Shown: positions 9,119 through 39,033 of the stretch, one piece after another
How the letters are laid out: each line of letters begins with the position of its first letter
How positions within the stretch are numbered: position 1 is the first letter of the stretch
Assembly: GCA_043812955.1 (NCBI GenBank)
Contig: JBDRLN010000067.1
Location: 1 to 53,643, forward strand
Length of the DNA stretch: 53,643 bases
Direction: 5' to 3'
Source: Candidatus Omnitrophota bacterium
GTDB lineage: Bacteria; Omnitrophota; Gorgyraeia; Gygaellales; Profunditerraquicolaceae
Position numbers and translations under genes: made by a program
Notes under the pieces: generated by a model
The model's input: the letters and a program-made list of their open reading frames with translations, nothing else
Database searches by the model: none
What the model was told of the DNA's origin: nothing

Positions 9119-10177
9119 TAGGTTTAATACCGCTTGCTTAAATAAGGCATTACTATCCTGCCTAAAGAAATTATCATAGCCTAAGCGCATCTGAATCAGT
9201 TTATCCGGCGCGCTTACTAAACTAGCCAATGACTTTTCTAAGATATCCCCCCTATCTAGCTCATTTTCATTGATTACTAGGGCACAGTGTTTATTCTCTA
9301 AGATAGAAGAATTGGCTTTTTGATGCAGGTAGGCAAAAGGATAAGGTATAATTATAGCCGGAATCTTAAAATACATTAGCTCACTTATAGTGGACGCCCC
9401 TGCCCGACAGATAACTAGATCCGCGCAGCTATAAGCATACTCCATATTATTTAAAAAAGAAAATACTTTGCCGGCTAACCCTAAATCAAGGTATTTAGCG
9501 CTTGTTGAATCAAAATCACTTGTACCGGTAATGTGGATAACCTGTAGCCTAGGTCTCCATGCCGCCAAAGACAGCGTTTTAATGAATTCTGAATTGATCC
9601 TGCGGCTGCCCTGACTGCCTCCTACAACTAAAATAGTGATCAAGTCATTTTTAAAGCCAAAGTAATCTAGGGCCTCATTTTTATCAATGATCTTCAATTC
9701 TTTTCTTATGGGATTTCCGGTAAAGATTATCTTCTGCGGATATTTCTTAAAATATGCCGCGCTCTCCCGAAAGCCAACACAAATCTTGTCCGCGAATTTA
9801 ATTAAAAACCGGTTTGCCCTGCCGGGAATAACATTCTGCTCCTGTAATAACGTCCTTATCCCGAACATACGCGCAAATAAAATCATTGGTATACCGGATA
9901 AACTGCCAAAACTAATTACTACTGCAGGCCTAAAACTCAGCAATATTCCTAAGCTTTCAAAGCTGGCCTTAATAAATTTAAAAAAAGCCGGAATATCTTT
10001 AATAGGAACAATAGAAAGATATTTGATTTTATAGGAAGATTTACCTAGGGGATACTGAATATTATTTTTTGGCAATACCAAAAGGCTTTCGCTGCTCCCA
10101 GCCTCTAAGTCTTTTAGAAAAGCTAAGGCGGGAAAAATATGCCCTCCGCTTGAGCCGGTTACAACAAGAATCCTCAC
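9089..10177 (-). CDS. murG: Lipid II GlcNAc transferase MurG
   Basis: GSSGGHIFPA, EQNVIPGRANR, GNPIR, GGSQGS, RAGASTISE; GTG start partly supplied by the repeat element. Confidence 0.93.
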   Translation of the reverse strand: MRILVVTGSSGGHIFPALAFLKDLEAGSSESLLVLPKNNIQYPLGKSSYKIKYLSIVPIKDIPAFFKFIKASFESLGILLSFRPAVVISFGSLSGIPMILFARMFGIRTLLQEQNVIPGRANRFLIKFADKICVGFRESAAYFKKYPQKIIFTGNPIRKELKIIDKNEALDYFGFKNDLITILVVGGSQGSRRINSEFIKTLSLAAWRPRLQVIHITGTSDFDSTSAKYLDLGLAGKVFSFLNNMEYAYSCADLVICRAGASTISELMYFKIPAIIIPYPFAYLHQKANSSILENKHCALVINENELDRGDILEKSLASLVSAPDKLIQMRLGYDNFFRQDSNALFKQAVLNLKLRDVSIFN

Positions 10178-10411
10178 CCCGCACCTTCTTTCTTATTCAT
10201 TCATCAAACCTTATTCTCTTTAAAAGTTAAATATACTGAAGGTGAGGGGTCACCCCGCACCTTCTTTCTTATTCATTATTTTGAAGCCATTTGTTTTAAA
10301 GTCATTTATTTTTTAGAAAGTGCGGGGCTCATCCCGCACCTTCTATATATTTAAATAGTTTTAAAAACCCTTATGTTTTAAGCATATTGAATAGAAAAAA
10401 AGGTGCGGGGC
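10177..10411. mobile_element. Three tandem MITE-like elements (TIR CCCCGCACCTTCT), each flanked by TCA/TGA
   Basis: Units 10177-10249, 10253-10328 and 10332-10411; TCA at 10174, 10250, 10329 and 10412. Confidence 0.8.
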
Positions 10412-11506
10412 TCACGGGTATTCTCCGCTTCTGCCGATATTCATTAGTATACCTACGCTAACCATATCAAATAAAAACGATGAACCGCCATAACTAATAA
10501 ATGGTAACGGCAACCCCTTAGTAGGTAAGGCCCCGCAGGAGACTCCAATATTCACTACAGCCTTAAGCGAAATCATTAAAACCAACCCAAGACTCAATAA
10601 ATAACCAAATTTATCCGGGGCATTCTTCATGATCTTGATTCCCTGCCGGATAAAAATAATATAAAGGGCGATTACCCCGATCGTCCCGACCAAACCCAAT
10701 TCCTCTCCGATAATAGAGAATATAAAATCAGTATGGGCTGCCGGAAGATAAAATAATTTCTGCATAGACTGGCCTAACCCCACACCGAATATCCCGCCTG
10801 AGCCCAAAGCCAACTGGGACTGGATAATCTGAAACCCTATCCCCTTAGGATCAACCCAGGGATTAATAAATGCCATTATCCTCATCCTGCGGTAAGGCAC
10901 ACTGAATATCAATACATAAAGCGCGGGAATAAAACTTAAAGCTATGCCCAAAAGATAATGCGGTCTCACGCCCCCGATAAAAAGCATGATAAAAACCACT
11001 ACCCCCATAGTCAAAGAAGTACCCAAATCCGGCTGGACCAGAATCAAAAGCACGGTAAATCCTAAGACGAACATCACCGGTATAAAACCCTTCCAGTTAG
11101 TTCTGATCTCGTCTTTTTTACGGGAGATAAAATCCGCCACATAGATTATTATAGCAATATTAGCCAGCTCTGAAGGCTGAAAACTGATAAACTTGAAAAA
11201 TCTAAACCACCTCCTGGCCCCGGACACCTCCCTTCCGATCCCCGGAATTAAAACCAGGATCAACAATAAAATAGAAACCAGTACTAAAGGTTTGGCATAC
11301 CTCCTAAACTTGTGATAATCAAATCCCATGACCAGGAAAGTAAGGACTATTCCAATGCCTAAAAAAGCCAGGTGCCTTTTCAAAAAAAAGAATCCGTCTT
11401 TATATTTCTCCCAGGCATAGATGGAAGAAGCGCTATAGATCATTACGATCCCTACGCAGATCAAAATAACAGTTGTCGTAAATATGCTTATTCTTATCTG
11501 GCGCAT
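10412..11506 (-). CDS. ftsW: SEDS peptidoglycan polymerase FtsW
   Basis: MIYSAS, GARRW, FQPSE, QPDLG, LPAAHTDFIF...EELG, LPFISYGGS. Confidence 0.95.
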   Translation of the reverse strand: MRQIRISIFTTTVILICVGIVMIYSASSIYAWEKYKDGFFFLKRHLAFLGIGIVLTFLVMGFDYHKFRRYAKPLVLVSILLLILVLIPGIGREVSGARRWFRFFKFISFQPSELANIAIIIYVADFISRKKDEIRTNWKGFIPVMFVLGFTVLLILVQPDLGTSLTMGVVVFIMLFIGGVRPHYLLGIALSFIPALYVLIFSVPYRRMRIMAFINPWVDPKGIGFQIIQSQLALGSGGIFGVGLGQSMQKLFYLPAAHTDFIFSIIGEELGLVGTIGVIALYIIFIRQGIKIMKNAPDKFGYLLSLGLVLMISLKAVVNIGVSCGALPTKGLPLPFISYGGSSFLFDMVSVGILMNIGRSGEYP

Positions 11507-12768
11507 TCTCTTTTTATCAAGCGATTGACTGTCTTTTTAAAAACTCTGCCCCTGTCTTCATAGCTTATAAACATATCAAAACTTGAACACATCGGCGATA
11601 ATAATACGCAATCGCCGGCAGCGGCATTTAAATAAGCCTTTTTTACAGCCTCTTCCATACTTAAGGCATAATCCACAGGTAAAGTTTTTTTAAAGGCTTG
11701 TTTTATTTTATCTCTGGCCTCACCCATCAGGATCGCCCGCTTTACTTTTTTTCGAGCCTGCGCAAGTACCAGCGAATAATCAACGCCTTTGTGCTTTCCC
11801 CCGGCGATTAAAATTATCCGGCTATTTATATTCTCTAAAGCCCAGACTGTTGATTCCGCGGTAGTAGCCTTGGAGTCATTGATAAACTTGACCTTATTTA
11901 AAACACCTACGTATTCCATCCGGTGCTCTATCCCCTTAAACTCCTTAAAAACCTTAGCGCAGAGATCTTGTTTTATCCCGAATATAGAAACCACTTTAAC
12001 TACTGCCGCCTGGTTAGGATTAAATTTAGCAGTCTTCGTAAAATTAACTACTTTCACCTTTTGCCCCCGGGCTAAACCCTTAAGTCGCTGATCATCGGCA
12101 TTTAAAACTAAGAAATCACCCTTATCCTGATTTTTAAAAATGCGTTTTTTAGCCTCTAGGTATTCCCGCATATCCTTATACCGGTCCAAATGATTTCGGC
12201 AGAAATTAAGGATGACTGAAACCCTCGGCTTGAAACTATCTGTCTTCTCCAGCTGGAACGAACTGACTTCTAAAACGACAAAATCATCTTTTTTAATTCT
12301 CCTGACTTCTCCGCAAAAAGGATTGCCGATATTTCCGCAGGTAAAAACTTTTTTTCCTGCTTTTTTCAATATTTTAGCAATCAGGGTAGTCACGGTAGTC
12401 TTGCCGTTAGAACCGGTAACCGCTATTATCGTACCGGGACATATTATACCAGCTACCTCTATCTCACTGATCACCGGTATGCCTTCTTCTTTAGCCCAGG
12501 CAATAGGTGAAGCATTATCTGGTACGCCCGGCGAAACAACTACCATGTCCCTTCCCTTTATAAACTTATGAGAATGCCTGCCTAATTCAAACTTTATTCG
12601 CGGAGATTTTAGTTTTTGGGCATTTAGACGGGTAGAATCATTATCAAGATTATCTGTAACGCTAACCCTAGCTCCCAGATTATGTAATAAATTAGCGCAG
12701 GATAAACCACTCTTAGCCAGGCCTACAATAGCAATCGCCTTACCTTTAAAATAATCTTTATTAATCAT
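11494..12768 (-). CDS. murD: UDP-MurNAc-L-Ala--D-glutamate ligase
   Basis: GLAKSG, VSPGVP, TGSNGKTT, EVSSFQL, HLDRY, INDSKAT, LLSPMCSSFD. Confidence 0.95.
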   Translation of the reverse strand: MINKDYFKGKAIAIVGLAKSGLSCANLLHNLGARVSVTDNLDNDSTRLNAQKLKSPRIKFELGRHSHKFIKGRDMVVVSPGVPDNASPIAWAKEEGIPVISEIEVAGIICPGTIIAVTGSNGKTTVTTLIAKILKKAGKKVFTCGNIGNPFCGEVRRIKKDDFVVLEVSSFQLEKTDSFKPRVSVILNFCRNHLDRYKDMREYLEAKKRIFKNQDKGDFLVLNADDQRLKGLARGQKVKVVNFTKTAKFNPNQAAVVKVVSIFGIKQDLCAKVFKEFKGIEHRMEYVGVLNKVKFINDSKATTAESTVWALENINSRIILIAGGKHKGVDYSLVLAQARKKVKRAILMGEARDKIKQAFKKTLPVDYALSMEEAVKKAYLNAAAGDCVLLSPMCSSFDMFISYEDRGRVFKKTVNRLIKRECAR

Positions 12769-12774
12769 TAAAAC

Positions 12775-13866
12775 CTATCTGATCTTTAAAGTAACTACGG
12801 TTAGCAGAGCGAGGAGGCTGGCCATTATCCAAAACCGCACAATCACCTTATTTTCCGGCCAGTTCAAGAATTCAAAATGGTGATGCAAAGGCGCGCAGTT
12901 AAAAATACGCTTTTTAGTCAGACGAAATGATACTACCTGCAGGATCACTGAAAGCGCTTCCAGGACAAATATGCCGCCGACAATAACCAGAAGCAGCTCT
13001 TTCTTGATTAAAAGGGCTACTGTGCCTAAAGCCCCACCCAAAGCCAAAGAACCCACATCACCCATAAATACCGATGCTGGATAGCAGTTAAACCATAAAA
13101 ACCCTAAACCCGCGCCTATAATACTGGCGCAAAATACCGTTAACTCACCGCTGCCTTTAATAAAAGGGACTAAAAGATAATCGCTTATCTTTATGTTCCC
13201 GCTAACATAACTTAAAACCCCATAGGCTAAGGCTACCATAACTACAATACCGATTGCCAGGCCATCCAGCCCGTCAGTAAGATTTACGGCATTAGAAGTT
13301 CCGGTAATAACCAAGATCACAAAGAATATGTAAAAAATTCCTAAATCAATAACAACATCTTTTAAAAAAGGAATGTCGATCTTGGTAGAATTACCCGAGT
13401 CAATAAAAAGTATCCCTCCTAAGATTAACCCCAAAATTATCTGGCTGCTGAATTTAGTTGTAACAGTCAACCCTTTAGAGCACTTTCTCACGTATTTTAA
13501 ATAATCATCGGCAAAACCAGTGATCCCCAGCCAGATAGTGACAAATAAAGCCAGGAGCACATATTTATTCAGAAAATCACCCCATAATAAATTAGAAACC
13601 ACAATGGATATCAATATCAATACTCCTCCCATTGTCGGAGTGCCCTGTTTCTTCTTATGCTTTTCATGCAAGGTCTTGCTGACATCCTCATTCCTTATAT
13701 TCTGCCCCATATTCCAGCGGGACAGCATTTTAATTACTAAAGGGCCAAGAATCAGGCTGATAATAAAAGCAGTCAGACAAGCCATTGCCGCTCGGAAGCT
13801 AATATAACGGAAGATATTTAGAAAAGAAACCGACTGGTGTAGGGGATAAAGCAGGTAATATAACAT
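12775..13866 (-). CDS. mraY: Phospho-MurNAc-pentapeptide transferase
   Basis: KQGTPTMGG, GFADDY, SNAVNLTDGLDGL, FMGDVGS, APLHHHFE. Confidence 0.96.
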   Translation of the reverse strand: MLYYLLYPLHQSVSFLNIFRYISFRAAMACLTAFIISLILGPLVIKMLSRWNMGQNIRNEDVSKTLHEKHKKKQGTPTMGGVLILISIVVSNLLWGDFLNKYVLLALFVTIWLGITGFADDYLKYVRKCSKGLTVTTKFSSQIILGLILGGILFIDSGNSTKIDIPFLKDVVIDLGIFYIFFVILVITGTSNAVNLTDGLDGLAIGIVVMVALAYGVLSYVSGNIKISDYLLVPFIKGSGELTVFCASIIGAGLGFLWFNCYPASVFMGDVGSLALGGALGTVALLIKKELLLVIVGGIFVLEALSVILQVVSFRLTKKRIFNCAPLHHHFEFLNWPENKVIVRFWIMASLLALLTVVTLKIR

Positions 13867-15255
13867 CTATTTTATTATCTCTCCCATTTTCAGCGAATGC
13901 GAACCTTTTATCAGGATAACGTCATTTTTGCCGGGAGCGACTTTTTTAAATAATATCTCTTTGGCTGTTAAAGAATTGCTGCAATTGTATAGATTATTCT
14001 TATTAAAACCAGCATCCCTGGCTGCTTTAAATGCCTTCCGGGATAACTTACCTACTGTTATAAACACATCGCATATCTTAGCCGCCTGCTTACCTGCCCA
14101 AAGATGAAAAAAACCCTCTTTTCTTCCCAGCTCCAGCATATCGCCCATTAAAAATATCTTTCTACCGCTGGTTTTAATACTCTCCAGAGCCGCCAGGGCC
14201 TGCCCTAATGAAACGGGGTTAGCATTATAGCTATCATCAATAAAATTTATCCCTTTAAACTTTATAGTTTTTAACCTGCCTTCAGGAAAATCAAAAGCGG
14301 ATAACCTAACAGCGCATCCATCCTTACTGATACCGAATATCCTAGCTATTGCTATAGCGGAAAGCGCGTTGTAGATATTATGATACCCTAAGGTATTCAG
14401 GGTAAATTTATGGTGGTTATTTAAACAAAAGGAAACCTTTCCCTTATCGCAAGTTATTTTAGACGCAAAAAAATCCGCTGCGCCCCTGATACCTGTACCT
14501 ATAATAACTTCATTTTTGGGTTTGGCAAAGATTTTCTTTCTTAAGCAAGGATCATCGCCATTTAGTATTCCGATACCGGGTTTACGGAGATGTTTAAATA
14601 AAGAATACTTCTCCTTTAAAACCCCCCTTAAGCTGCGCAGGTATTGTAAATGTGCTAGCCCGATATTAGTAATCACGCCTAAATTTGGCTCACAGATTCC
14701 GGACAGATTAGCTACTTCCCCGAAATGGTTTGTGCCTATCTCCAGTACCACGATATCATATTGATCATTAAGCCTTAAAAGCGTCATCGGTAAACCAATA
14801 TGATTATTCTTAGTCCCTTCATTCTTAAGCACCCTGAATTTTTTCGATAATATCCAAGAAATCATCTCCTTGGTAGTAGTTTTGCCGTTAGAGCCGGTAA
14901 CCGCGATAACCGGGACATCATACCTCTGGCGGTTAAACCTAGCTAGATCTCCTAAGGCTTTGATCGTATCCTTAACTTTGATAAATGCTATTTTTCCCAG
15001 TGACCTGGTATCTTGGTATCCTGGTCTGCTGGTGTCCTGGTGTCCTGGTAACTGATATATAATTGCTTTAGCCCCTTTGGCAATAGCCTCAGGAATAAAC
15101 TTATGGCCGTCAAAATTATCGCCTTTAATACAGATAAAGGCCTCATCTTTATTAATACTCCGGGAGTCGATGGAAAATCCTTTAACCTCAATTACAGTCC
15201 CGGAATTAATAACCCTTCCTCCTGTTGCCTTTACTATTTCGCTTAAGCTAAACAT
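13867..15255 (-). CDS. murF: UDP-MurNAc-tripeptide--D-Ala-D-Ala ligase (with in-frame repeat insert)
   Basis: IDSR, TGSNGKTTTKE, NNHIGLP, DDSYNANP, GDMLELG, IKGSH. Confidence 0.94.
   Translation of the reverse strand: MFSLSEIVKATGGRVINSGTVIEVKGFSIDSRSINKDEAFICIKGDNFDGHKFIPEAIAKGAKAIIYQLPGHQDTSRPGYQDTRSLGKIAFIKVKDTIKALGDLARFNRQRYDVPVIAVTGSNGKTTTKEMISWILSKKFRVLKNEGTKNNHIGLPMTLLRLNDQYDIVVLEIGTNHFGEVANLSGICEPNLGVITNIGLAHLQYLRSLRGVLKEKYSLFKHLRKPGIGILNGDDPCLRKKIFAKPKNEVIIGTGIRGAADFFASKITCDKGKVSFCLNNHHKFTLNTLGYHNIYNALSAIAIARIFGISKDGCAVRLSAFDFPEGRLKTIKFKGINFIDDSYNANPVSLGQALAALESIKTSGRKIFLMGDMLELGRKEGFFHLWAGKQAAKICDVFITVGKLSRKAFKAARDAGFNKNNLYNCSNSLTAKEILFKKVAPGKNDVILIKGSHSLKMGEIIK
14996..15051. repeat. 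Degenerate 8-nt tandem repeat, 7 units (consensus ACACCAGG on minus strand), inside murF
   Basis: TTACCAGG ACACCAGG ACACCAGC AGACCAGG ATACCAAG ATACCAGG TCACTGGG; encodes LPGHQDTSRPGYQDTRSLG. Confidence 0.85.
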
Positions 15256-16711
15256 TCTCTAACTTCCTCTCGGTCATCAAAATGGATAGTTTTATTTTTG
15301 AATATCTGATAATTTTCATGGCCTTTGCCCGCTACTAAGACTATATCGCCGGTCTTAGCTAAAGAAATAGCCTTTTTTATAGCCTCTCTCCTGTCAGGCA
15401 AAATGCGGTAATTATTTTTTACTGTTCCCTTAATAATATCTGCGATTATGGCATTCGGATTTTCGCTGCGGGGATTATCATTGGTAATTAAAAAAAGGTC
15501 GGCTAGGCCAGAAACTACCCTGGCCATTTTTGGCCGTTTAGTTTTATCCCGATCGCCTCCGCAGCCAAATACAACAATAATTTTCTTAGGCCGCAACTGC
15601 CTTAAAGTAGTAATGACATTTTTTAAGGCATCGTCAGTATGGGCATAATCCACGAATACGCAAAAACCTTTAGGAAAATCTATCTTTTCAAGCCTTCCCG
15701 GGACCAGAGTGATTTTTTCTAAAGCCCTCCGAATGACCTGCGGGCCAAAACCCTGAGCCATGGCCCAGCCGGCAGCGGCTAAAACATTATAAATATTATG
15801 CCTGCCAATCAGCTTAGTTTTTATATTTAATTTATGGTTTAGCCCCTTTAAGGTGAATTCCGTACCGTTAATATCCGTCTGGATATCCCGGGCATAAACA
15901 TCAGCTTTATTTTCTATTGCATAAGTAACTATTCTTTTCTGGGAAAGCATTTTTTTAAGCCTGCGGCCGTATCTATCATCAACATTAATAACGCTAAAAC
16001 TTTTTTTGCTTAAATCATTAAACAGCTTAACCTTAGATAGAAAATAATCCTCCATATTTTGATGATAATCCAGGTGGTCCTGGGTAAGATTAGTAAAAAT
16101 AGCTGATGAGAAATTTATCCCTCCTACCCTATCCTGGTCTAAGGCATGAGAAGAAACTTCTATTACCGCATAATCACACCCCTGATCTGACATTTTTTTT
16201 AACATCCCCTGTAATTCCAGAGGGCCTGGGGTGGTGTTTTTAGAAGAAATAGTCCTGGCATTAAAACGGTAATTTATTGTACCTATAACTGCCGGACAGT
16301 TTTCTGCTTCTTTTAACATGGCCTCGATTAAATAAGTTACTGTAGTTTTCCCATTTGTCCCAGTCACTCCGATCACCTTGATTTTAGAACTGGGATTTCC
16401 CGAGAATTCGCTGGCTAATTTTGCTAAAGCCTTGCGCGAGTCTTTTACTTTGATGAATAGTATCTTTCCTGATGTCTTGGTGTCCCGGTGTCCCGGTGTC
16501 CCGGTGTCTGATATATAACGGCTTTGGCCCCTTTGGCAATAGCCTCAGGGATAAACTTATGGCCGTCATACTTATTCCCTTTAACTGCCACAAAGATATA
16601 ATTATCTTTAACCAATTTAGAATTACAGGCAATACCCCTGACCTGAAAATCCTTAAAACCGGCAGGGATGAAAGCGTAATCTAAAACTTTAATCAGTTGG
16701 TAAAGAATCAT
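15243..16711 (-). CDS. murE: UDP-MurNAc-dipeptide--diaminopimelate ligase, split by a frameshift at an 8-nt tandem repeat
   Basis: N-domain in ORF 16445-16711; continues in another frame as GKILFIKVKDSRKALAKLASEFSGNPSSKIKVIGVTGTNGKTT into ORF 15243-16376 (EVSSH, DHLDYH, DYAHT, DNPR, GKGHE). Confidence 0.9.
16468..16507. repeat. 8-nt tandem repeat, 5 units (ACACCGGG x3, ACACCAAG, ACATCAGG), inside murE
   Basis: Read directly; coincides with the frameshift. Confidence 0.9.
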
Positions 16712-19735: not shown

Positions 19736-20182
19736 TTACTGCTGCTTGACATCTATAAGCTTCTCGGCGATCTCCTCAAAAGACTGCCGCCAATTTCCAT
19801 AAAACTCAACCCACTTCTCTTTAGACCAGATTTCGATCCTGTTGGATATGCCGGCGATTATAACGTCTTTTTTAATCTCGGCAAAATCCTTAAGGTACTG
19901 AGGCAATAAAATCCTCCCCTGCCTATCCGGGATCATATCCATAGCGCCGGAAAAATAGATCCGGTTAAAAATACGGGATTCCTGTTTGGTAAAAGAAACG
20001 GCTTTAAATTTCTGTTCCTGCTGTTTCCATTCTTCTTCCCCAAACATAAAAAGACACTTATCCAGGCCCCGGGTAACAAAGAATTTTTCAATAAAATTAT
20101 TCTTGGATACCTCGCGGAATTTAGCCGGAAGAATTAATCTACCCTTACGGTCTATAGAATGGAGAAACTCCCCGTAAAACAT
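19736..20182 (-). CDS. mraZ: Division/cell wall cluster repressor MraZ
   Basis: MFYGEF.HSIDRKGRLILP, DRQGRILLP, RIEIWS. Confidence 0.95.
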   Translation of the reverse strand: MFYGEFLHSIDRKGRLILPAKFREVSKNNFIEKFFVTRGLDKCLFMFGEEEWKQQEQKFKAVSFTKQESRIFNRIYFSGAMDMIPDRQGRILLPQYLKDFAEIKKDVIIAGISNRIEIWSKEKWVEFYGNWRQSFEEIAEKLIDVKQQ

Positions 20183-20270: not shown

Positions 20271-20347
20271 ACCCAGCACCTTTTTTGTATTCAATATCTT
20301 TTTAATGCTTAAATTTAAATCTATCCTGTATTTAAAAGGTACCGGGT
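20271..20347. mobile_element. Diverged copy of the CCCCGCACC MITE family in the mraZ leader
   Basis: ACCCAGCACCTTTT...AAAAGGTACCGGGT, 77 bp; shares CACCTTTTTT.TATTCAATAT with the reverse complement of unit 10332-10411. Confidence 0.6.
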
Positions 20348-30037: not shown

Positions 30038-30064
30038 CCTTTTTTTAAGAAACAGGGCTCAAGT

Positions 30065-30436: not shown

Positions 30437-30495
30437 GTTTATTGCTCCTTTCCCAGGTTAAACTACGAATCCTCTCGTAAATAAGCCGCACTTGC

Positions 30496-30879: not shown

Positions 30880-32870
30880 TATGCTTTACCCCCCCCTAAA
30901 GGCAATAGTATAGAAGCAGTGGTTCCTTTTTTCAATTCGCTTTCAAATTTTAATTCTCCGTTATGCGCTTTTATAATACCGTAACAAACTGCCAGCCCTA
31001 GACCAGTTCCTTTTTCTTTAGTGGTAAAGAACGGCTCAAATAACCTTTTTTTAGCTTCTTCCGGCATACCGGATCCAGTATCCTTAAAATCAAGCCGCAA
31101 AAAATCCCCCTCTAAAAAAGTGGTTATAGTAATAGCTCCCACGCCAGACATTGCGTCTTTAGCGTTATTAATAAGATTCATAAACACCTCTTGGATCTGT
31201 TGTTCGTCAATGGTTATAAGAGGCAGATTTTCCTGATAATTTCTTTTTATCTCTACATCGTCTAACTTAAATTGGTGTTCCATAATACCCAATACTGCCT
31301 CTATGCTCTTATTGATATCCACCTCTTTTGTTTCGCCTTTGCTGGGCCGGGAAAATTTCAGGAGCCTCCGGATAATATTCTTAGCCCTGAGGCACTCCTC
31401 CATTATAATCTTTAGGTTATTCTTTACTGCCTCGCTTTGTATTTCCTCCATCAGAGACAGCTGGGCATTTCCTGAGATAATCATCAGAGGATTATTTACC
31501 TCATGAGCCATAGACGAAACCAGCTTACCCAAAGAAGCCAGCTTCTCGGACTGAATGAGCATATCCTGGGTAAGCTTCAAATCCTCGATGTGCTGCTCTA
31601 GTTTTTCCCTGATCTGATTATTATCATCCAACATGCTGATCACTATTTTGCGGGATGTTGCCTCATCTTTCAAGGTCTCACTTAGGTTCTCTTCCACCTT
31701 CTTGCGCACGGCGATTTCTTTATTGAGATTGTCTATTGAGGTAGTGGTCTTCTGCAAATCTTCAACCATATTATTAAAGCTATCAACCAACAATCCTATT
31801 TCACCACCTGCATTAACATTTACGCGGGTAGAGAGGTCTCCTTTAGCCAGGCGATTTGCCGAAGTAACAAGGCCTACTAAAGGTATTGAAAATTGTTTTG
31901 ACATAACTAAAGCGAGTATTATTATAAGAACCGTGATTAAAAATATATAAAGAATGGAATCCTTGAAAGCATTTTTTGACTCTATATGGAATATATCTGG
32001 AGATATACCAAGCACAACCTTGAATAGCGCTTGATTATTTGAACCTATCTTAACTGTGTCGGAAACAATGTAAAAACTAAGAGGGTTATCATTTTTGAGC
32101 GAATCCGGATGTCGATAAAGCAGACTCTTCTGGCCTGGCGCAAATATTAGTTCATCATCTAAAGTAAACAAGCTTGCCACATGTTCATTATAAAATACAT
32201 ATCCATCCAAATGCTTTAAATAATCTGTCAAATCGCAGTGAAAAATCACTGCCCCTGCAAACCCACCCACCTCAGGATCATACTTGGGAGTGCCGATGAA
32301 AAAGGTAAATTTACCACCATATTCAAACGGACCCTCAAATAATATCGCGTCTATTTTTTCACGTTTTAATCTTTTAAATAAGGTATAAATCTTTGAATGT
32401 AGTATGTCGGTGGGAGGAAAGTTATCCAGCGAAACATAGTTTCTTAACCTTTTATTGCCTTTAGTTATAACCCTCTCTATACCTTTTGGATCAATGAATC
32501 TGGCTGATAAATATATCCCTCCAGCTCTATTGGTGAAATGCAAAAATAGCTGTTCAGCAAGGGGTTTAGTTAAGAGAATTTCGTCTTTTTGTGAACTTAA
32601 GAAGCTATTGAAGACAGAGCTTTTTTCTATAAAATCGCAATCCCCTCTAATGCGTGAGGTGTATATCCTATCAAAATAAGCAATAGAACTACCCAATGCA
32701 TTCGAAAATTGGGACTTTAATTCTTTCTTAATAGCTTTTTGTTTATAGAGATAATACTGTGCTCCTGTAATAACAATAATGACAATTCCTACCCCAAAAT
32801 AAGAAATAAAGAGCCGCTGAAAAATCGAAAGCCCCTTAGGTCCTTTTTTGTCTATTATCTTGTTTTGCAT
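30879..32870 (-). CDS. Membrane sensor histidine kinase (periplasmic sensor, HAMP, HisKA, HATPase)
   Basis: Two TMs, HAMP, SEKLASLG...AHEVNNPL, QVFMNLINNA, DTGSG, FFTTK.KGTGLGL. Confidence 0.92.
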   Translation of the reverse strand: MQNKIIDKKGPKGLSIFQRLFISYFGVGIVIIVITGAQYYLYKQKAIKKELKSQFSNALGSSIAYFDRIYTSRIRGDCDFIEKSSVFNSFLSSQKDEILLTKPLAEQLFLHFTNRAGGIYLSARFIDPKGIERVITKGNKRLRNYVSLDNFPPTDILHSKIYTLFKRLKREKIDAILFEGPFEYGGKFTFFIGTPKYDPEVGGFAGAVIFHCDLTDYLKHLDGYVFYNEHVASLFTLDDELIFAPGQKSLLYRHPDSLKNDNPLSFYIVSDTVKIGSNNQALFKVVLGISPDIFHIESKNAFKDSILYIFLITVLIIILALVMSKQFSIPLVGLVTSANRLAKGDLSTRVNVNAGGEIGLLVDSFNNMVEDLQKTTTSIDNLNKEIAVRKKVEENLSETLKDEATSRKIVISMLDDNNQIREKLEQHIEDLKLTQDMLIQSEKLASLGKLVSSMAHEVNNPLMIISGNAQLSLMEEIQSEAVKNNLKIIMEECLRAKNIIRRLLKFSRPSKGETKEVDINKSIEAVLGIMEHQFKLDDVEIKRNYQENLPLITIDEQQIQEVFMNLINNAKDAMSGVGAITITTFLEGDFLRLDFKDTGSGMPEEAKKRLFEPFFTTKEKGTGLGLAVCYGIIKAHNGELKFESELKKGTTASILLPLGGGKA

Positions 32871-32884
32871 ATCCTTACCTTCTT

Positions 32885-33988
32885 TTATTGCGGATATATT
32901 TCTAATGCCAAAGCCTTATCAGTATACTCCTCAATAAAATCCTTACCTGATAAGTCTATCCCCAGCATCAGCGCCCTTTCGCGATTCACCATTACTGCTC
33001 CTCTGGTAGGAGCAATCACCGGGATACTAGCTGGGTCTTTCTTTTCATGAAGTATCATATACGCCATTCTAACCGCTTCATATCCCTGTTTAAAACCAGA
33101 ATCATCAACCACCAGAAGTATCCCTTCTTGAACAAATTGTTTTTCATGCCCACAATCAGGTTTCATTATGTTGCGCAGATACCAAGCCCCTGCTTTCAAT
33201 TGGTCAACCGGATTGCCTTGCTCATCTTTAAGCGTATTGTGATTAGATATAAAGAAAGCGTCAATCTTGTTTTGCAGCCTCAAGGCTGCTGATTGCCACT
33301 CAAGATACGAATTGGTCACCACTGACTCTACGAGTTTAAAGGGAAGACTGCCTTCCTCTGCAAAGTTCTCAATTTTCTTGACCTTTGCTCTACCGGTCTC
33401 AGAATCATCTGAAAGCACAGCAAGAGTTTTAATTTCAGGAACAAGTTTTTTAAGATATTCCAAAGCCTCCCTTTCGTATCCTGATTGGTAAACACCTGTC
33501 ACATTATGTCCGGGGCGTTCAAGGGAATCAAGTAAACCATACTTTAAGGGAATTCCGTTTATTCCCCAAAAGACCACGGGTATATCAGTATCGATAAATT
33601 GGTTGCCGATATAATTTACCGCATTATCATCGCCCAAAAGAATCAAATCTGGCTTAAATTCGTTTATTTCCTCTACGATTTTGGCTGTAGCTTGTGCAAT
33701 TTCATTCTTTGCACTTTTTCGCTTGGTATCCATCCAGGCTTTTTTAATCACAATCTTATCCGTTTTCAGATAATCATTTTGCGTATATTCATCGGTTTGC
33801 GCTTTATTATCCAGGAATTTAAAATCAAGCAGAGCAGCGCAAACTCCTTTATGGGTATCCTGCGACCAAAGATATTCCCGATGATAACTACTCACTACAA
33901 ATATCCGTATCTTCTTCGGCTCTCCATAACTTACCGAGACCAGGCCGAATACAAATAATAAAACAAATATAATCTTCTCCAACTTCAC
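32885..33988 (-). CDS. Periplasmic ABC-type substrate-binding-like sensor protein
   Basis: Signal peptide, SSYH..Y.WS, PDLILLGDDNA, PVVFWGIN, NVTGV; no permease genes nearby. Confidence 0.7.
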   Translation of the reverse strand: MKLEKIIFVLLFVFGLVSVSYGEPKKIRIFVVSSYHREYLWSQDTHKGVCAALLDFKFLDNKAQTDEYTQNDYLKTDKIVIKKAWMDTKRKSAKNEIAQATAKIVEEINEFKPDLILLGDDNAVNYIGNQFIDTDIPVVFWGINGIPLKYGLLDSLERPGHNVTGVYQSGYEREALEYLKKLVPEIKTLAVLSDDSETGRAKVKKIENFAEEGSLPFKLVESVVTNSYLEWQSAALRLQNKIDAFFISNHNTLKDEQGNPVDQLKAGAWYLRNIMKPDCGHEKQFVQEGILLVVDDSGFKQGYEAVRMAYMILHEKKDPASIPVIAPTRGAVMVNRERALMLGIDLSGKDFIEEYTDKALALEIYPQ

Positions 33989-34058
33989 TATCCACCTCCT
34001 AATTTGTTTATGCTAACTTAAGCTGAAGTAGCTTACGTAAATTGCTTCAAAGAAGACT

Positions 34059-35327
34059 CTAATACGGTTTTGGCTTTCCAAGTTCCTCGCATAATTTGTT
34101 GGCTTCTTCCTTTAGCTCAAGTATGCGCCCTTCCCTGCCTACGCCAGCCTTATAAAAAACTTCCAATTCCAGTAAATGCTTCTGCGCTTCTTCTGCCATC
34201 ATCTTGCGCCCGGATATATCCCTAATAAATTGCACTAACCCGGTACTATTCCCTTTGTCGTTAAAAATAGGGGAAATGGACACTTCGAGGTATTTATTTA
34301 GGCGGGGATCGAAAAATTCTGTCTGCGCCTTTTTCCTATTCAGCTGAGCTTCTTTGCTGGGGCAATCCGGAGGCGGTTCTTTCGCCCCATGTATCAGCTC
34401 ATAACAAAGCTTTCCGATAATCTCTTTAGGTTCTAGATTAAAAGCATTAGCAAAGGCTTTGTTAACCCTGATAATCTTGAAATTCATATCCGTAATTAAA
34501 ATTAAATCCGTTATAGCATCAAAGATCACCCTCCACTCCGCTGCTACATGTTTAATTTGCTCCTCCGTCTTCTTGCGCTCGGTGATATCCTGGAAATATA
34601 AATTTGCATATCCGGCCCCTTTTATCGGCGCAATTACGACTGAAAAGATTTTACCTTCTTCTTCTTCTTCTTCTTGCCACGTCTTTCCGGCATCAAACCT
34701 CTCCTTGACCAGACAGCACCATCTCTCAGGCGCCTTTGACCCTACTTTGATGCCCCACCCGGCAAGTATCTTCAAACCTTTTTCGTTGCTATACAGGATC
34801 ATGCCATCTTCGGCTATGCGCAAGACAGGTAAAGGATTTTCTGACGGAAATCTTGCAAGACTTACTATCTCCTCCCTCTCCGCCTTCCTGCGCTCAGTGA
34901 TGTCTTCAATAGAAAGTAGGATTAGTTCTTCTTCTTTCACCCCTGCCGCTATTATTGCTGCTATTTTCTTAGGGATACGCAACTGACAGGCATTCACGAT
35001 CATGACTCGCTCGCCAATATGCTCAAATTTATGCTCGACCTCATAATTTTTCACAACTTTCTTTTCTGGTAAAATTTCTTTTAATAGCTGAAGCAGCTTA
35101 GGAATATTCCATTGCCTATTACCTAAATCAGGAAATAGCTGGCCTATTGTGTCTTTTTCTGCAACCTTAAAGGTGGCATAGAAAGATTGGTTCGAAGAAA
35201 TGATCCGTAAGTTTTTATCCAATACCAAAAACGGCTCTCTTAGTGTAGCGATAATGTTATTACTATACTCTAAGGACTCTAAGTCTATTTTAATTTTTGA
35301 CTCTTCACTCTGATTTTTATCTTTCAT
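34059..35327 (-). CDS. Multi-PAS protein with C-terminal coiled coil and no output domain
   Basis: Three PAS/PAC repeats ending DITER/DITER/DISGR; tail VGREGRILELKEEANKL. Confidence 0.8.
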   Translation of the reverse strand: MKDKNQSEESKIKIDLESLEYSNNIIATLREPFLVLDKNLRIISSNQSFYATFKVAEKDTIGQLFPDLGNRQWNIPKLLQLLKEILPEKKVVKNYEVEHKFEHIGERVMIVNACQLRIPKKIAAIIAAGVKEEELILLSIEDITERRKAEREEIVSLARFPSENPLPVLRIAEDGMILYSNEKGLKILAGWGIKVGSKAPERWCCLVKERFDAGKTWQEEEEEEGKIFSVVIAPIKGAGYANLYFQDITERKKTEEQIKHVAAEWRVIFDAITDLILITDMNFKIIRVNKAFANAFNLEPKEIIGKLCYELIHGAKEPPPDCPSKEAQLNRKKAQTEFFDPRLNKYLEVSISPIFNDKGNSTGLVQFIRDISGRKMMAEEAQKHLLELEVFYKAGVGREGRILELKEEANKLCEELGKPKPY

Positions 35328-35430
35328 TTTTCAAACTCTCCATACACCCGGTCAGATCACACCTTGGCATAAAGGATTGCCAAATGCGCCCCTTCTGGGG
35401 CGGATTGGCCGGTGTGTCACTTTCTGCAAC

Positions 35431-35467
35431 AAAAAACCCAAGGCCTGCATTTCTGCAGTGCCTTGGG
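35431..35467 (-). terminator. Intrinsic terminator/attenuator upstream of the PAS gene
   Basis: Minus strand CCCAAGGC-ACTGCA GAAA TGCAG-GCCTTGGG followed by TTTTTT. Confidence 0.65.
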
Positions 35468-35781
35468 CTAATGTTCAGTGATTAGCTAAAAGGGCTATCT
35501 TTGTTTGTTTGCTTGTTTATCGTTCTATTCTTCCTCTCCAAAGGATCTCCTTTGTGAGCCGCCTAATTAATATTATACTCTTTTATATATTGGAATCAAC
35601 AACTCTGTCCGTATTTAAGCGAATGCCCTAAGTTAAAATCTTTGCCTATTTCCATACCCTGAGCTGGCTGAACTGCACCCTGAATTTCTTAAAGAATTTC
35701 TATCTTCTGCTTTTCAGCATGAGGCACAAAAACGCAGCCGGATGAATAATTGTATGGATAGAGTCGTCCCTAAATCAATTC

Positions 35782-35859
35782 TGGTCGGGAAGGGCGGATT
35801 TGAACCGCCGGCCTCTTGCTCCCGAAGCAAGCGCTCTAGCCAAACTGAGCCACTTCCCG
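35782..35859 (-). tRNA. tRNA-Pro(CGG)
   Basis: CGGGAAG acceptor stem, D-arm GCTCAGTTTGGCTAGAGC, anticodon loop TTCGGGA, GGTTCAAATCC, encoded CCA. Confidence 0.95.
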
Positions 35860-35912
35860 TAAAATATCTTTGATTGGTTTTATCAGTATATCAGAAAAAA
35901 CAATAAAAAACA

Positions 35913-35990
35913 AGGGACGGTTCTCAGCTCGATCTTAAAGTGTCCCCGAATAGGGGACACTTTAGCCTTGGTTTGAGAACCGTCCCTGAG
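35913..35990. repeat. Nested palindromic element, copy 2 (inverted relative to 921-1000)
   Basis: Same outer and inner IRs; supplies the ribE C-terminus TQGRFSNQG and its stop codon. Confidence 0.85.
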
Positions 35991-36567
35991 TTTTGGCTAA
36001 AATATCAAACTCCAGGTTAACTTGGCCTGAAGGGCCTTTAAACCCTAAGGTAGTATTCTTTAAGGTATGCGGGATAATATAAACCGTAAAGGTATTCGAT
36101 CTTTTTTCCACAATAGTCAAACTTATACCATCGATAGCTATCGAACCTTTAGGCAAGATATAACCTAAGAATTTACCTGGAACAACTATTTCAAAACTTA
36201 AATTACCCGCTATATGATTTTTCTTACGGACCACCCCTAAGCAATCAATATGCCCGCTAACAAAATGTCCGGATAACCTATCACCGATTTTCAGGCTGCG
36301 TTCAAGATTTACCTTATCACTGATTCCTAATAATCCTAAATTAGTAACCTTTAAAGTTTCCGGCATCACTTCGAAACTCACCCAGCCCCTGTTTACAGGG
36401 GCTGGGTCTATTGCTATTACCGTAAGGCAGGCGCCGTTTACCGCGATACTATCGCCTATCTTGGTATCATCTAAGGTCTTATTAGCCTGAATCTCCAACA
36501 CGGTATTATTACCGCTTCTGGAAATTTTCTTAACTACGCCTAATTCCTCAACTATTCCGCTGAACAT
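35962..36567 (-). CDS. ribE: Riboflavin synthase
   Basis: MFSGIVEE N-terminus (start 36567), GDSIAVNGACLT, GHFVSGHID, KGSIAIDGISLT. Confidence 0.94.
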   Translation of the reverse strand: MFSGIVEELGVVKKISRSGNNTVLEIQANKTLDDTKIGDSIAVNGACLTVIAIDPAPVNRGWVSFEVMPETLKVTNLGLLGISDKVNLERSLKIGDRLSGHFVSGHIDCLGVVRKKNHIAGNLSFEIVVPGKFLGYILPKGSIAIDGISLTIVEKRSNTFTVYIIPHTLKNTTLGFKGPSGQVNLEFDILAKTQGRFSNQG

Positions 36568-37648
36568 AAGCTTCAATTAAAAAGTCTTCCCCTATTTTTT
36601 TTAGTTTTACCTCTTTTAATTTTATAGCCTGCTCTACCCTGGTAATGCCCTTACCCATAACTGAGCTTATAGCGTCCCTGCCGCCGATAATCTTATTGGG
36701 GTTGATAAAGAACATAACCTTATCTACCAGGCCGTCGTCAAATAAAGAGCCGATAAGATTTCCCCCTCCCTCCACTATAACAGAAGTTATATCCATTCTG
36801 GCTAATTTCCTGAGCATATCTTTTAGGTTTACTTCCCCGGATTTCTCCATTACATCCAGAATTTTGGCTTTCTGAGCCAGGATCTTCCTGTTTTCAGTCT
36901 CCTGGCCCGGCTGAGTAAGCAAGGTAACGATTACCACCTGGCTGTCCTTAGAAAATATATTCGCAGACTGGGGAGTACTTAGCTGGCTATCCACTATTAT
37001 CTTTACCGGATTTTTCCGGGAATACCAGGCATCCAGTTTAGGGTTATCCCTTAACACCGTATTGACTCCGACCATGATAGCGTCAAAATTCCCCCGCAGG
37101 CGATGAGCAAACCCCCTAGATTTATCCGAAGTTATCCATTTGGAATCTCCGCTATGAGTGGCTATCTTTCCGTCTAAAGACTGGGCAACTTTTACCGTAA
37201 CCAAAGGCATCTTTTTAGTAATATACTTGATAAAAGCTTCATTCATCTTCTTTAATTCTTCTTCTAAAAATCCTAACTCGACTTTGATATTCTGTCTTTT
37301 TAATATATCTATACCTTTGCCGTTATTAACCGGATTGGGATCGATCATGCCAATGATTACTTCCTTGATTCCGCTTCTTATAATTCTGTCCACACAGGGA
37401 GGAGTCCGGCCATAATGGACACAAGGCTCAAGCGTAACATATAAAGTTGCGCCTTTAGCGTCTTTTCCTGCCTCATCCAAGGCAATAACCTCAGCATGAG
37501 AAGAGCCGGCTTTCTGATGAAATCCCTTACCGATAATCCGGTTGTTTTTAACTACCAAAGCGCCAACTAAAGGATTAGGGCTGGTTTTACCCTTGGCCTT
37601 AAGAGCTAGCTTCATAGCCATCCGGATATATTTCTCGTGAATATTCAA
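36548..37648 (-). CDS. ribD: Riboflavin deaminase/reductase
   Basis: TSPNPLVG, HAE, TLEPC.H.GRTPPC, SLDGKIA, SKWIT, EGGG; TTG start at the MITE boundary. Confidence 0.95.
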   Translation of the reverse strand: MNIHEKYIRMAMKLALKAKGKTSPNPLVGALVVKNNRIIGKGFHQKAGSSHAEVIALDEAGKDAKGATLYVTLEPCVHYGRTPPCVDRIIRSGIKEVIIGMIDPNPVNNGKGIDILKRQNIKVELGFLEEELKKMNEAFIKYITKKMPLVTVKVAQSLDGKIATHSGDSKWITSDKSRGFAHRLRGNFDAIMVGVNTVLRDNPKLDAWYSRKNPVKIIVDSQLSTPQSANIFSKDSQVVIVTLLTQPGQETENRKILAQKAKILDVMEKSGEVNLKDMLRKLARMDITSVIVEGGGNLIGSLFDDGLVDKVMFFINPNKIIGGRDAISSVMGKGITRVEQAIKLKEVKLKKIGEDFLIEAYVQRNS

Positions 37649-37724
37649 CCCGCACCTTCTTTCTTATTAACCAACCCAACACCTTTTGTCTTGAAATGAC
37701 TGAATTCTTTAGAAGGTGCAGGGT
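37648..37724. mobile_element. CCCCGCACC-family MITE between the PHP gene and ribD
   Basis: ACCCGCACCTTCT...AGAAGGTGCAGGGT flanked by TCA at 37645 and 37725. Confidence 0.8.
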
Positions 37725-38540
37725 TCATCTTACGGCTTGTTTAAGTTTTTCGACTAATTCATAAGGTAGTTTTATCGAGCCAATCTTAGCCTCAGGCTTG
37801 GCACTACCATGGCAATCCGAACCTCCGGTAAGCAATAGATTGTATTTACGGCAGTAACCCTCATAAATCCCTATCATCGCCTTGGTATGTTCCGGATAAT
37901 AAACCTCCAGGCCCATTATCCCGGATTTTATAAACTCTAGGATCAAATCATTGCTCTGAAGACTGTAAGGATGGGCTAATACCGGAACGCCGCCAACATC
38001 TTTAATTAGTTTTATCGCTTCTGCCGGAAAATACCTAAAGCCTAAAACATATGCCGGACACCTGTCCCCGATATATCTATTAAAGGCCTCTCCGGTAGAA
38101 CCCACTAATCCTTCTTTAACCATAGCTCTGGCTATATGCAATCTTCCTGCCGTACCGTCTGCGGAAATATCAAATACTGCCTGCGGATCCAGTTTTAAAC
38201 CTAAATCCATTAATTTATCTAATATCCTATATACCCTGTCGACCCGGTTTTTCTTTAATAAAACCATCTTCTCTTTAAAACATTCATCCTGATAATCAAT
38301 CAGATAACCCAAGATATGCACTTCGGATTTTCCGTATTCAGCAGTAAGCTCTACCCCCGGAATAACCTCGATACTTCTACCAAGAGCAGCTTTCACAACC
38401 GGTTCAATTCCATCAACCGTATCATGATCAACCACTGATATAACTGATATCCCGAATTTAACCGCTTGCTGAATTAACTCCTCGGGAGTATACGTGCCAT
38501 CAGAATAGGCTGTATGTAAATGCAGATCAGCGAATTTCAC
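37725..38540 (-). CDS. PHP-domain phosphoesterase (YciV/TrpH-like)
   Basis: DLHLHT.YSDG, DHD, IPGVE, HILGY, GRLHIA, LAHP, GGSDCHG. Confidence 0.88.
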   Translation of the reverse strand: MKFADLHLHTAYSDGTYTPEELIQQAVKFGISVISVVDHDTVDGIEPVVKAALGRSIEVIPGVELTAEYGKSEVHILGYLIDYQDECFKEKMVLLKKNRVDRVYRILDKLMDLGLKLDPQAVFDISADGTAGRLHIARAMVKEGLVGSTGEAFNRYIGDRCPAYVLGFRYFPAEAIKLIKDVGGVPVLAHPYSLQSNDLILEFIKSGIMGLEVYYPEHTKAMIGIYEGYCRKYNLLLTGGSDCHGSAKPEAKIGSIKLPYELVEKLKQAVR

Positions 38541-38613
38541 CCCGCACCTTCTTTCTTACTCATAATACTAAAACCATTTGTTTTAAAATCATTGGATTTT
38601 AGAAGGTGCGGGG
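38540..38613. mobile_element. CCCCGCACC-family MITE between nusB and the PHP gene
   Basis: Perfect 13 bp TIR CCCCGCACCTTCT/AGAAGGTGCGGGG flanked by TCA at 38537 and 38614. Confidence 0.85.
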
Positions 38614-39033
38614 TCACTTCTCTTTCTCTATTTTTATCTTATCCAGAACACCGTTAACGAATTTAGCTGATTTTGGTTCAGAGTATTTCTTGGCCAGTTC
38701 AACTGCCTCATTTATAGATACTTTGGGCGGAATCTCTTGCCTAAAAAGTAATTCATAGGCGCTCAAGCGCAATATATTCCTATCTACCACAGCCATGCGC
38801 TCCAATTTCCAGTTAGTAGCATACTGGGAGATATCTCTATCAATTTCCGCCAAATTACAAATTACCCCTTTGACTAATTCTGCGGCAAAAACCTTAACCG
38901 AATCCTCGACTTCTTCCTCCACTCCCATCAGCCAAAAATTAGCCAAAACCACTTCCAGGTCTTTGTCTTTAGTAATATCCAATTTATAAAGAACCTGCAA
39001 AGCATATTCCCTGGCTAATGTCCTTTTACGCAT
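38614..39033 (-). CDS. nusB: Transcription antitermination factor NusB
   Basis: R..ARE.ALQ.LY, W...R...VDRNILR, INEAVELAKKY, FVNGVLD. Confidence 0.95.
   Translation of the reverse strand: MRKRTLAREYALQVLYKLDITKDKDLEVVLANFWLMGVEEEVEDSVKVFAAELVKGVICNLAEIDRDISQYATNWKLERMAVVDRNILRLSAYELLFRQEIPPKVSINEAVELAKKYSEPKSAKFVNGVLDKIKIEKEK

Follow-up and report, generated by a model that had tools for sequence, protein, structure and literature searches.

MITE-like hairpin elements that probably rebuild the start codons they enter in a Candidatus Omnitrophota bacterium

The mobile repeats of mycobacteria called MIRUs have been described as inserting at start codons with little disturbance of gene expression, and are said to act through an open reading frame (ORF) of their own, coupled at -4 (PMC12548453). 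Direct repeats of a tetranucleotide, empty sites and inverted ends that are imperfect have been noted for them (Delihas 2011, PMC3184786). Among other small repeats, GTAG REPs often donate a TAG stop codon (PMC3733652), and Neisseria REP2, a repeat found immediately upstream of genes, contains a ribosome-binding site as well as an ATG (PMC3184786). Elements of the IS200/IS605 type insert beside a specific tetranucleotide in a fixed orientation and are recognized through hairpins; they have separate subterminal hairpins and are not known to have inverted ends. Here we describe small hairpin elements, found between operon genes of a 53,643-nucleotide contig of a Candidatus Omnitrophota bacterium (GCA_043812955.1, JBDRLN010000067.1; hereafter the window), that have clear inverted ends and a defined TGAA or TGAG (TGAR) target duplication.

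[quoted passage not shown] The conclusion builds on the anatomy of the copies, the duplication, empty sites, their position in start codons, an orientation bias, a patchy spread and repeated insertion at one junction.

Contig C67, which is the window, belongs to a bin of 1.616 Mb (79 contigs, 41% G+C; G000 below). A first-pass annotation, made from the letters alone, had listed five elements, and all lie within one base of where it placed them, with TGA on both sides on the gene strand. ORF lists and Pfam bear out the neighbors it named, ftsW/murG, PHP/ribD and nusB/PHP. On the + strand the elements read CCCCGCACCTTC ... GAAGGTGCGGGG with a few mismatches, and their inverted ends are 12-13 bp long. 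They span 70-80 bp, have a subterminal TGAATA motif at both ends and, according to the ORF lists, contain no gene. The flanking TGA appears on the + strand as TCA at 10174-10176, 10250-10252, 10329-10331, 10412-10414, 37645-37647, 37725-37727, 38537-38539 and 38614-38616. At each junction the first possible start of the downstream gene (GTG for murG and PHP, TTG for ribD) consists of the last element base plus TG. The features are as follows.

10177..10249, - strand: element copy 1, adjoining murG, in sense orientation (profile E=1e-12).
10253..10327, - strand: element copy 2, in the middle of the ftsW/murG array, sense (profile E=4e-16; 68% identity to copy 1).
10332..10410, + strand: element copy 3, adjoining the ftsW stop and running opposite to copies 1 and 2.
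10411..10414, - strand: direct repeat TGAG (gene strand), of which the TGA at 10412-10414 is the ftsW stop.
10175..10177, - strand: murG start GTG, formed by the last element base (G, 10177) and the TG of the duplicated TGAG.
37648..37723, - strand: element at the PHP/ribD junction, sense; its terminal T gives the ribD start TTG (37646-37648).
37724..37727, - strand: direct repeat TGAA (gene strand), containing the PHP stop TGA at 37725-37727; its partner is 37644-37647.
38540..38613, - strand: element at the nusB/PHP junction, sense (E=1e-17); it ends in the G that opens the PHP start GTG (38538-38540).
38614..38616, - strand: nusB stop TGA, which is the left repeat, here 3 nt; the right repeat is TGAA at 38536-38539.
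20272..20346, strand unassigned: degenerate sixth copy of the AAAGGTG-arm subtype, intergenic, about 90 nt upstream of ORF 19736-20182 (profile E=0.3).
10412-11506 and 9089-10177, - strand: FtsW and MurG (ORF lists and Pfam).
38614-39033, 37725-38540 and 36548-37648, - strand: NusB, PHP-domain protein and RibD (ORF lists and Pfam).

The three copies of the ftsW/murG array are mutually 65-71% alike. As the first-pass annotation had noted, the gene-proximal copies share one orientation; the third array copy, on the ftsW side, is the inverted one (minus-profile E=4e-14 vs 9e-7 for the plus profile). Other repeats in this array lie at 10328-10331, 10250-10252 (3 nt only) and 10173-10176. A promoter scan of 10100-10500 found no promoter-like site, and two 'terminator-like' matches in the same interval are junctions between array copies. 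Searching the window with Rfam at gathering score yielded only an FMN riboswitch and a tRNA, and no match to the element. The riboswitch (40988-41129, - strand, 93.6 bits) precedes ribBA-ribH-nusB-PHP-ribD-ribE, and two of the elements therefore sit within a riboswitch-controlled operon; the tRNA (35785-35859, - strand) lies directly downstream of ribE.

The target duplication is 4 bp, TGAA or TGAG, rather than the 3-bp TGA first proposed. Contigs of three public metagenome runs (X1-X3) were aligned to positions 36900-39300 of the window, and one 357-nt contig (run X1, depth 11, ~91% alike) joins 37643 directly to 37724, omitting 37644-37723. Since the 80 nt skipped correspond to the 76-nt element plus one TTCA, with 4 letters fitting either side of the joint, the duplicated unit is 4 bp. 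On the gene strand this empty PHP/ribD allele reads AGATGAATATT, in agreement with the prediction of the first-pass annotation.

Empty (A/G)TGA sites, which the first-pass annotation had expected in relatives, are present at all three junctions. We examined the PHP and MurG loci of 40 relatives and counted 27 per junction; left out from 30 loci each were L135 and L145, in which contig ends cut PHP, and L177 and L178, in which the MurG match begins at residue 60-64. A 4-nt overlap, (A/G)TGA, occurs in 10 of the 27 loci at ftsW/murG, and in 13 of 27 at both nusB/PHP and PHP/ribD. The same-genus genome G001 has no element at PHP/ribD, where it reads AAGATGAGTATACAC with a -4 overlap. At nusB/PHP of three relatives (L130, L133 and L138, from G012, G022 and G020), 8-12 extra bases starting with CCC follow the nusB TGA (GCCCCGAA, ACCCGGTA and CCCAGCCGAAA), and the PHP homologue appears to start at an overlapping ATG with a 3-5 residue extension. 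Speculatively, these bases may be scars of lost elements.

A profile made from 19 copies and searched across the 1.6 Mb host genome (cut-off E<1e-3) identified 30 loci, 24 of subtype A (GAAGGTG arm, as in the window) and 6 of subtype B (AAAGGTG arm). The end pattern matched 15 times, and its reversed control not at all; the family is far beyond chance in this genome. The TGA flanks of the window recur genome-wide, with TGA directly after the element in 19 of the 24 subtype A copies. Eleven of the 24 have perfect 4-nt direct repeats (3-nt match in 14), and in 14 the stop of a long upstream ORF lies within 10 nt. In 18, the last element base opens the start of an ORF of at least 60 codons (14 GTG, 3 ATG, 1 TTG); two of the remainder are inner members of the window array, unable to touch a gene. 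Identity among the copies ranges from 33 to 91%, with a median of 69%.

Two host-genome loci carry the hairpin in other settings. At G000:C49:3671-4147 (locus L287 372-848), the gene for class A RNase P RNA (181.8 bits) incorporates two element copies, one as helix P3 (CCCCGCGCCUU...AGAGGUGCGGGG) and one as helix P12 (UCCCGCACCUU...AAGGUGCGGGA); compared with the model, each of these helices has 50 nt inserted. Against the element profile, the P12 copy scores E=1e-15. It seems that the hairpins take the place of variable helices in this structural RNA or lengthen them. At G000:C6:8878-8956, a subtype B copy flanked by TAAA...TAAA sits between a TAA stop and the next ATG (TAAATG), a junction of the kind that subtype A occupies, and the start codon is intact.

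The first-pass annotation had the elements targeting stop/start overlaps. This holds for 10-11 of the 18 start-associated copies, in which an overlap is restored when the element is removed, but the invariant feature is the downstream start codon, in which all 18 lie. Of the others, C61:65376 restores TAATG, C45:17432 restores a start 5 nt after TAG, and five have decayed older copies upstream. The claim that the last element base and the TG together form the rebuilt start is supported. An in-frame TAA inside the element, 15 nt upstream of the junction, closes the frame of the downstream gene, so that no start further upstream is possible. In addition, homologues align from residue 1-2, and Pfam domains start at residues 1, 3 and 5 in junction-start proteins. 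In MurG, Glyco_transf_28 begins at residue 3, and relatives align from residue 1-2.

We considered whether the elements might insert at any TGAA or TNNA, the copies now seen being the survivors that restored a start and an SD in a gene-dense genome. TGAA sites number 12740 inside coding sequence (87%), where a 76-bp insert would be lethal, 359 at called starts and 1523 elsewhere outside coding sequence (1494 intergenic, 29 at stops). If non-coding sites alone tolerated insertion, 19% of copies would be expected at starts, yet 18 of the 22 independent loci are there (P=4e-10). Survivorship would account for 5′-truncated remnants in the host genome that retain the 3′ arm adjoining the gene, a mark of selection that fits dependence of the gene on that arm, and for the varied tetranucleotides (TAAA, TCAA, TTTA, TTGA, TGGA or TCCA) that flank 15 of the 39 full copies in named database records. 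It does not account for the repeated, independent filling of one junction or for the orientation, given that both ends carry the same 13 bases. We regard survivorship without start targeting as unlikely. In one side case, G000:C49:14017-14092, the 5′ half of the element is replaced by GTAG-type palindromes (CCACCTCGTAGGTGG...), and only the 3′ arm, with the SD and junction GTG, remains before a 186-codon ORF. The GTAG-type palindromes of this genome belong to another repeat.

Insertion has occurred repeatedly at one junction, as the three diverged copies of the window array, one of them inverted, also indicate. At ftsW/murG, the copies of G000 have TGAG repeats and those of G001 TGAA repeats, each matching the second codon of its own gene, so the two insertions are independent. 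Genomes from three other genera (G014, G024 and G002) carry elements with other ends at this junction, which is filled in 5 of 27 relatives; in G000, arrays or remnants occur at 6 of 22 loci. The copies also show an orientation bias. Judged by interior sequence, 19 of 21 TGA-flanked copies in G000 run the same way relative to the gene, and orientation agrees with the TGA strand in all 18 informative copies of G182, from another genus, and in 27 of 31 copies in named records. Because both ends share the same outer 13 bases, the bias exceeds what a rebuilt start and SD explain.

The family is widespread in one order of small-genome bacteria, with a patchy distribution. Across 234 genomes of the order, the 11-base end motif matched 0 to 57 times per genome, with large differences within one genus, while the reversed control matched 0-2 times as a rule and at most 5. 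For G182, 20 loci were chosen from paired ends among its 55/57 end matches; a junction start is seen in 19 of these 20, and in 14 the element is flanked left and right by TGAA or TGAG. G182 also contains 26-bp mini-copies consisting of the two ends and a 4-nt loop (L201 931-956, L210 956-981, L194 779-804 and L208 846-871), two of which lie nested within full elements, where they occupy the internal TGAA of the subterminal TGAATA and are bordered by TGAA on either side. A public species collection gave 121 pattern matches, 39 of them with full ends and identical 4-nt flanks. Twenty-four of these, flanked by TGAA, TGAG or TTCA, come, among records with a known title, from Candidatus Omnitrophota/Omnitrophica and one Phycisphaerae bin; the other 15 come mostly from candidate-phyla-radiation and Planctomycetia bins. 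Matches in high-GC organisms were discounted, as many lacked full ends and direct repeats and their number was in line with the ~270 expected by chance. Viral contigs had no match to the full element pattern. In runs X1-X3, summed contig depth over window positions 38520-38600 was 5-7 times that of the flanks (144 vs ~20 in X1), and contigs of two other metagenomes match the element only, from which we infer that the family is abundant in subsurface, groundwater and biofilm samples.

An immobile regulatory RNA hairpin, conserved and evolved in place between operon genes, would explain the strong folds described below, the position inside conserved operons and the occupation of the same junctions in G000 and G001. 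It is at odds with the empty sites and 4-bp direct repeats, the nested copies, the range in copy number even within a genus, the copies inside RNase P RNA and the lack of an Rfam family at gathering score, and is hardly credible.

The 3′ end of 16S rRNA, with the anti-SD, was not found in the host bin, so SD use was deduced from k-mer enrichment. Relative to host-genome starts, positions -13 to -9 show a 7-11 fold enrichment of AGGAG, GGAGG and GAGGT (9-11 fold for AGGAG and GGAGG); the genome employs classical Shine-Dalgarno sequences. AGGTG peaks at -9, a peak that includes element copies. The AGGTG of the element, inside the GAAGGTG of its inverted end, lies at -9 from the rebuilt start, within the SD register of the host. 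The SD-like sequence claimed by the first-pass annotation is there.

The elements are predicted to fold strongly. The RNA of the nusB/PHP copy has a minimum free energy of -38.7 kcal/mol (z -7.8), and its ends pair as a 13-14 bp stem. In 17 of 18 gene-proximal copies, the minimum-energy fold (-22 to -41 kcal/mol) pairs at least four of the five SD bases. Between the upstream stop and the 5′ arm there are 0-1 nt, so a ribosome terminating at that stop should melt the stem.

These features suggest the following model. Insertion duplicates TGAA or TGAG, which are the last two bases of the start codon and the first two of codon 2. The left repeat retains the TGA stop of the upstream gene that formerly overlapped the start (ATGA/GTGA), and in the window the upstream genes do keep their TGA (10412-10414, 37725-37727 and 38614-38616), as first claimed. 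The right repeat follows the element's terminal base, a G or at times an A or T, and with it makes a GTG, ATG or TTG that keeps the old frame; the inner part of the same end, GAAGGTG, places AGGTG at -9. The ribosome would presumably use both the rebuilt codon and this AGGTG. In the mRNA the two ends would pair and mask SD and start; a ribosome terminating at the upstream stop would open the stem and free them, and coupling would be kept via unfolding. Such masking would fit coupling by unfolding as well as, or better than, the independent initiation first suggested. Coupling by 'RNA unfolding' has been described, for example for rpmI-rplT at +52 nt (PMC12548453).

A different route to coupling would be a relay of the kind described for MIRUs (PMC12548453), in which a short internal ORF (ATG AAT AAG AAA GAA GGT GCG GGG TGA) is translated and the ribosome passed on via the GTGA overlap. 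Of 19 TGA-flanked G000 copies, 13 contain an ORF that opens with ATG and closes at the junction TGA (8 codons in 11), and a relay would give a reason for the fixed orientation. However, an ATG in that frame occurs in only 5 of 21 G182 copies, and any start in 11 of 21. The ATG belongs to the TGAATA motif found at both ends, no SD precedes it, and the internal ORF never overlaps the upstream stop. We consider the relay improbable.

Several observations weigh against a mobile hairpin that rebuilds starts, or narrow what can be claimed for it. Subtype B copies in the host genome, and copies in other phyla, have other TNNA repeats (TAAA, TCAA, TTTA or TGGA) and no rebuilt start; the start-codon habit may therefore be a filter upon a looser target. 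Two of the 21 oriented G000 copies (C66:25674 and 10332-10410) run the opposite way. The median identity of 0.69 implies that the G000 copies are old and that activity there may be past. When 12 nt of the 5′ arm were blocked in silico, the fold energy fell to -5 to -17 kcal/mol, but in 12 of 18 copies weak alternative folds left the SD paired. The enrichment test relies on gene calls from a crude longest-ORF heuristic (1479 genes, 89% coding), and all genomes compared are draft metagenome bins. Lastly, we found no matching transposase, either within the window, as the first-pass annotation had reported, or bounded by the same ends in G000 and at Y1, rve and DDE loci; it had proposed a search for an insertion sequence (IS) or HUH transposase with those ends. 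The families searched were Y1_Tnp, DDE_Tnp_1, DDE_Tnp_1_2, rve, DDE_3, IS110 and the IS1380-type PF13701. G000 has no pair of ends at IS length, although draft bins may lack IS copies. At 26 Y1 loci (5 in G000, 21 in eight other genomes), the end motif is absent at up to one mismatch from flanks of at least 300 bp to 1.5 kb. The flanks of 5 rve (putatively IS30-like), 7 DDE_Tnp_1 and 8 PF13701 loci are also without the ends, and searches for DDE_3 and the IS110 family gave no match.

A single-copy transposase of 330-336 amino acids with an rve domain is encoded at G000:C52:5373-5642 (L231) and in G152, G176 and G182 (L232-L234). A motif marks these proteins as putatively IS30-like. We rejected this enzyme as the engine, because it has its own ends, CTCAAGTTG...CAACTTGA, unrelated to the hairpin elements.

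Two further hairpin families bear on what the moving enzyme might recognize. The second family is a 51-bp element, TCCCGTTAGAAAC...GTTTCTAACGGGA, with an inner GGAGG and 24/23 matches in G002 vs 3/8 for the control; seen there at L263 (1500-1550 and 2069-2119) and L171, it is flanked by TGAA, makes an ATG start from a terminal A and has ~20 copies in that genome. A relative of this family at G000:C38:3151-3203 has CACG flanks and no junction start. The third family, of ~48 bp (CCCCGCCCTTCC...GGAAGAGCGGGG), has TGAA...TGAA flanks and a terminal G that completes a GTG at the junction (L279, L280, L281, L282, L284 and L285, in G002 and G014); one of its copies lies at ftsW/murG of G014. The three families, whose inner ends are unrelated, have in common only TGAA-(C/T)CCCG...CGGG(G/A)-TGAA, with hyphens marking the element borders.

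These shared termini, together with the near-fixed orientation relative to the non-palindromic TGAA and the hairpin-only mini-copies, lead us to favor, tentatively and at about one chance in three, a strand- and structure-specific enzyme over classical double-strand DDE cut-and-paste. One such possibility concerns the engine and not the anatomy: the elements could be REP/REPIN-like hairpins, moved in single-stranded form by an HUH tyrosine enzyme (Y1, RAYT or TIRYT-like) cutting beside TGAA, and not MITEs of a DDE insertion sequence. The near-fixed orientation is what insertion into single-stranded DNA 3′ of a tetranucleotide would give, the 26-bp copies are likewise flanked by TGAA, and Y1 genes flanked by families of inverted-end repeats have been described (PMC3733652). 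Y1_Tnp genes are common, with 5 in G000, 8 in G182 and at least one in 194 of the 234 genomes, but their presence, compared by eye, does not track element copy number. G028 (5-7 end matches) and G051 (6) have no Y1 match, and Y1 genes also occur in element-free genomes such as G049. The five RAYT/TIRYT-like genes of G000 (C66:129635-129979, C40:8859-9203, C65:3652-3996, C44:13248-13574 and C43:20069-20299) are each flanked by palindromes of their own, for example CCACCCCGTAGGTGG repeats and GGGGTCAGAA/TTCTGACCCC, and the flanks of three canonical IS200-like genes hold no similar ends. With none of the 26 Y1 loci containing the end motif, two G000 copies inverted, and TGAA or TGAG on both sides of copies in place of a GTAG or CGTC tag, an HUH engine is a doubtful though serious candidate.

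A broader and equally tentative reading would unite the three families in one hairpin superfamily that has only the TGAA-CCCG...CGGG-TGAA termini in common, its inner arms varying freely provided that they read as an SD. Its members would home in one orientation to NTG-AA via a strand- and structure-specific enzyme, and each would act as a portable initiation and coupling cassette with a 5′ arm starting from the upstream stop, so that the terminating ribosome would unmask the SD and start of the 3′ arm.

How do the mobile hairpins described here compare with known systems? Their closest likeness is to MIRUs, repeats of 40-100 bp between operon genes that are co-transcribed with them and often form arrays. 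The two have in common direct repeats of a tetranucleotide at filled sites, relatives whose sites are empty, inverted ends that are imperfect, and insertion at start codons; here, 18 of 24 copies are at a start, 14 have an upstream stop within 10 nt, and 19 of 21 are in sense orientation. They differ in that the relay ORF is not conserved, in supplying one start base and an SD from inside the inverted end, and in arrays made of diverged copies, one inverted, rather than near-identical tandem units. They also belong to another phylum, and the likeness drawn here is one of description. Insertion at start codons is already described for MIRUs (PMC12548453), and a described family accounts in part for the behavior reported in the first-pass annotation; the particular solution, the ends and the TGAR duplication of the present family differ.

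Like Correia, Nezha, Chunjie and RUP, the elements are small and non-coding, with inverted ends, a target duplication, many copies (variable in number here), filled and empty sites, and stable RNA hairpins (PMC3184786, PMC10969869). Unlike those MITEs, they have no parent IS with the same ends (no autonomous IS with these ends was found in G000 or at Y1, rve, DDE_Tnp_1 and IS1380-like loci), their target is TGAR in a start codon rather than TA or 9 bp, and their orientation is near-fixed. The first-pass view, in which the repeat is non-autonomous and has inverted ends along with a target duplication, is upheld. Chen et al. are said to have reported, in 2008, Chunjie inside an operon that it did not disturb.

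REP/REPIN-RAYT and TIRYT systems share with the present family tetranucleotide-tagged hairpins, and the abundant Y1 genes and hairpin-only mini-copies seen here are further likenesses (PMC3733652). In contrast, the tag TGAA is here directly repeated, one copy to each side, none of the 26 Y1 loci carries the ends of the family, and the elements lie upstream of starts, where REPs lie downstream of genes. Neisseria REP2 adds a promoter and a whole ATG, whereas the present family has no promoter-like site in 10100-10500; the description of REP2 in the available text of PMC3184786 includes neither a target duplication nor insertion into an existing start codon. With IS200/IS605 elements the likeness is tetranucleotide-adjacent insertion, fixed orientation and a hairpin, and the difference is the inverted ends of our family.

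Searches of the literature by title found no report of such elements in Omnitrophota, nor any paper on MITEs that brings together stop codon, start codon and coupling; 'stop codon', 'start codon' and 'Shine' are likewise absent from the available text of a 2024 review of prokaryotic MITEs (PMC10969869). Overall, the first interpretation of this locus was largely right, with corrections to the length of the duplication and to the target, and with coupling by unfolding placed beside independent initiation as a candidate mode of translation.

If our conclusion is correct, these elements represent a second, independent solution to a problem that MIRUs are thought to solve, namely how a mobile repeat can live harmlessly in tightly packed, translationally coupled essential operons such as those for cell division and riboflavin synthesis. 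The solution here would be to carry the missing start base and a ribosome-binding site in the element's own inverted end. It would account for numerous GTG starts, and for 75-nt gaps, in the gene calls of Omnitrophota, in which pipelines for annotation will put starts in the wrong place. It would also provide a natural, compact 'coupling cassette' that is testable in reporters. The enzyme behind it would have to recognize TGAA together with a CCCG-ended hairpin, in one orientation. Should the superfamily reading also be true, a mobile element would have evolved neutrality within essential operons.

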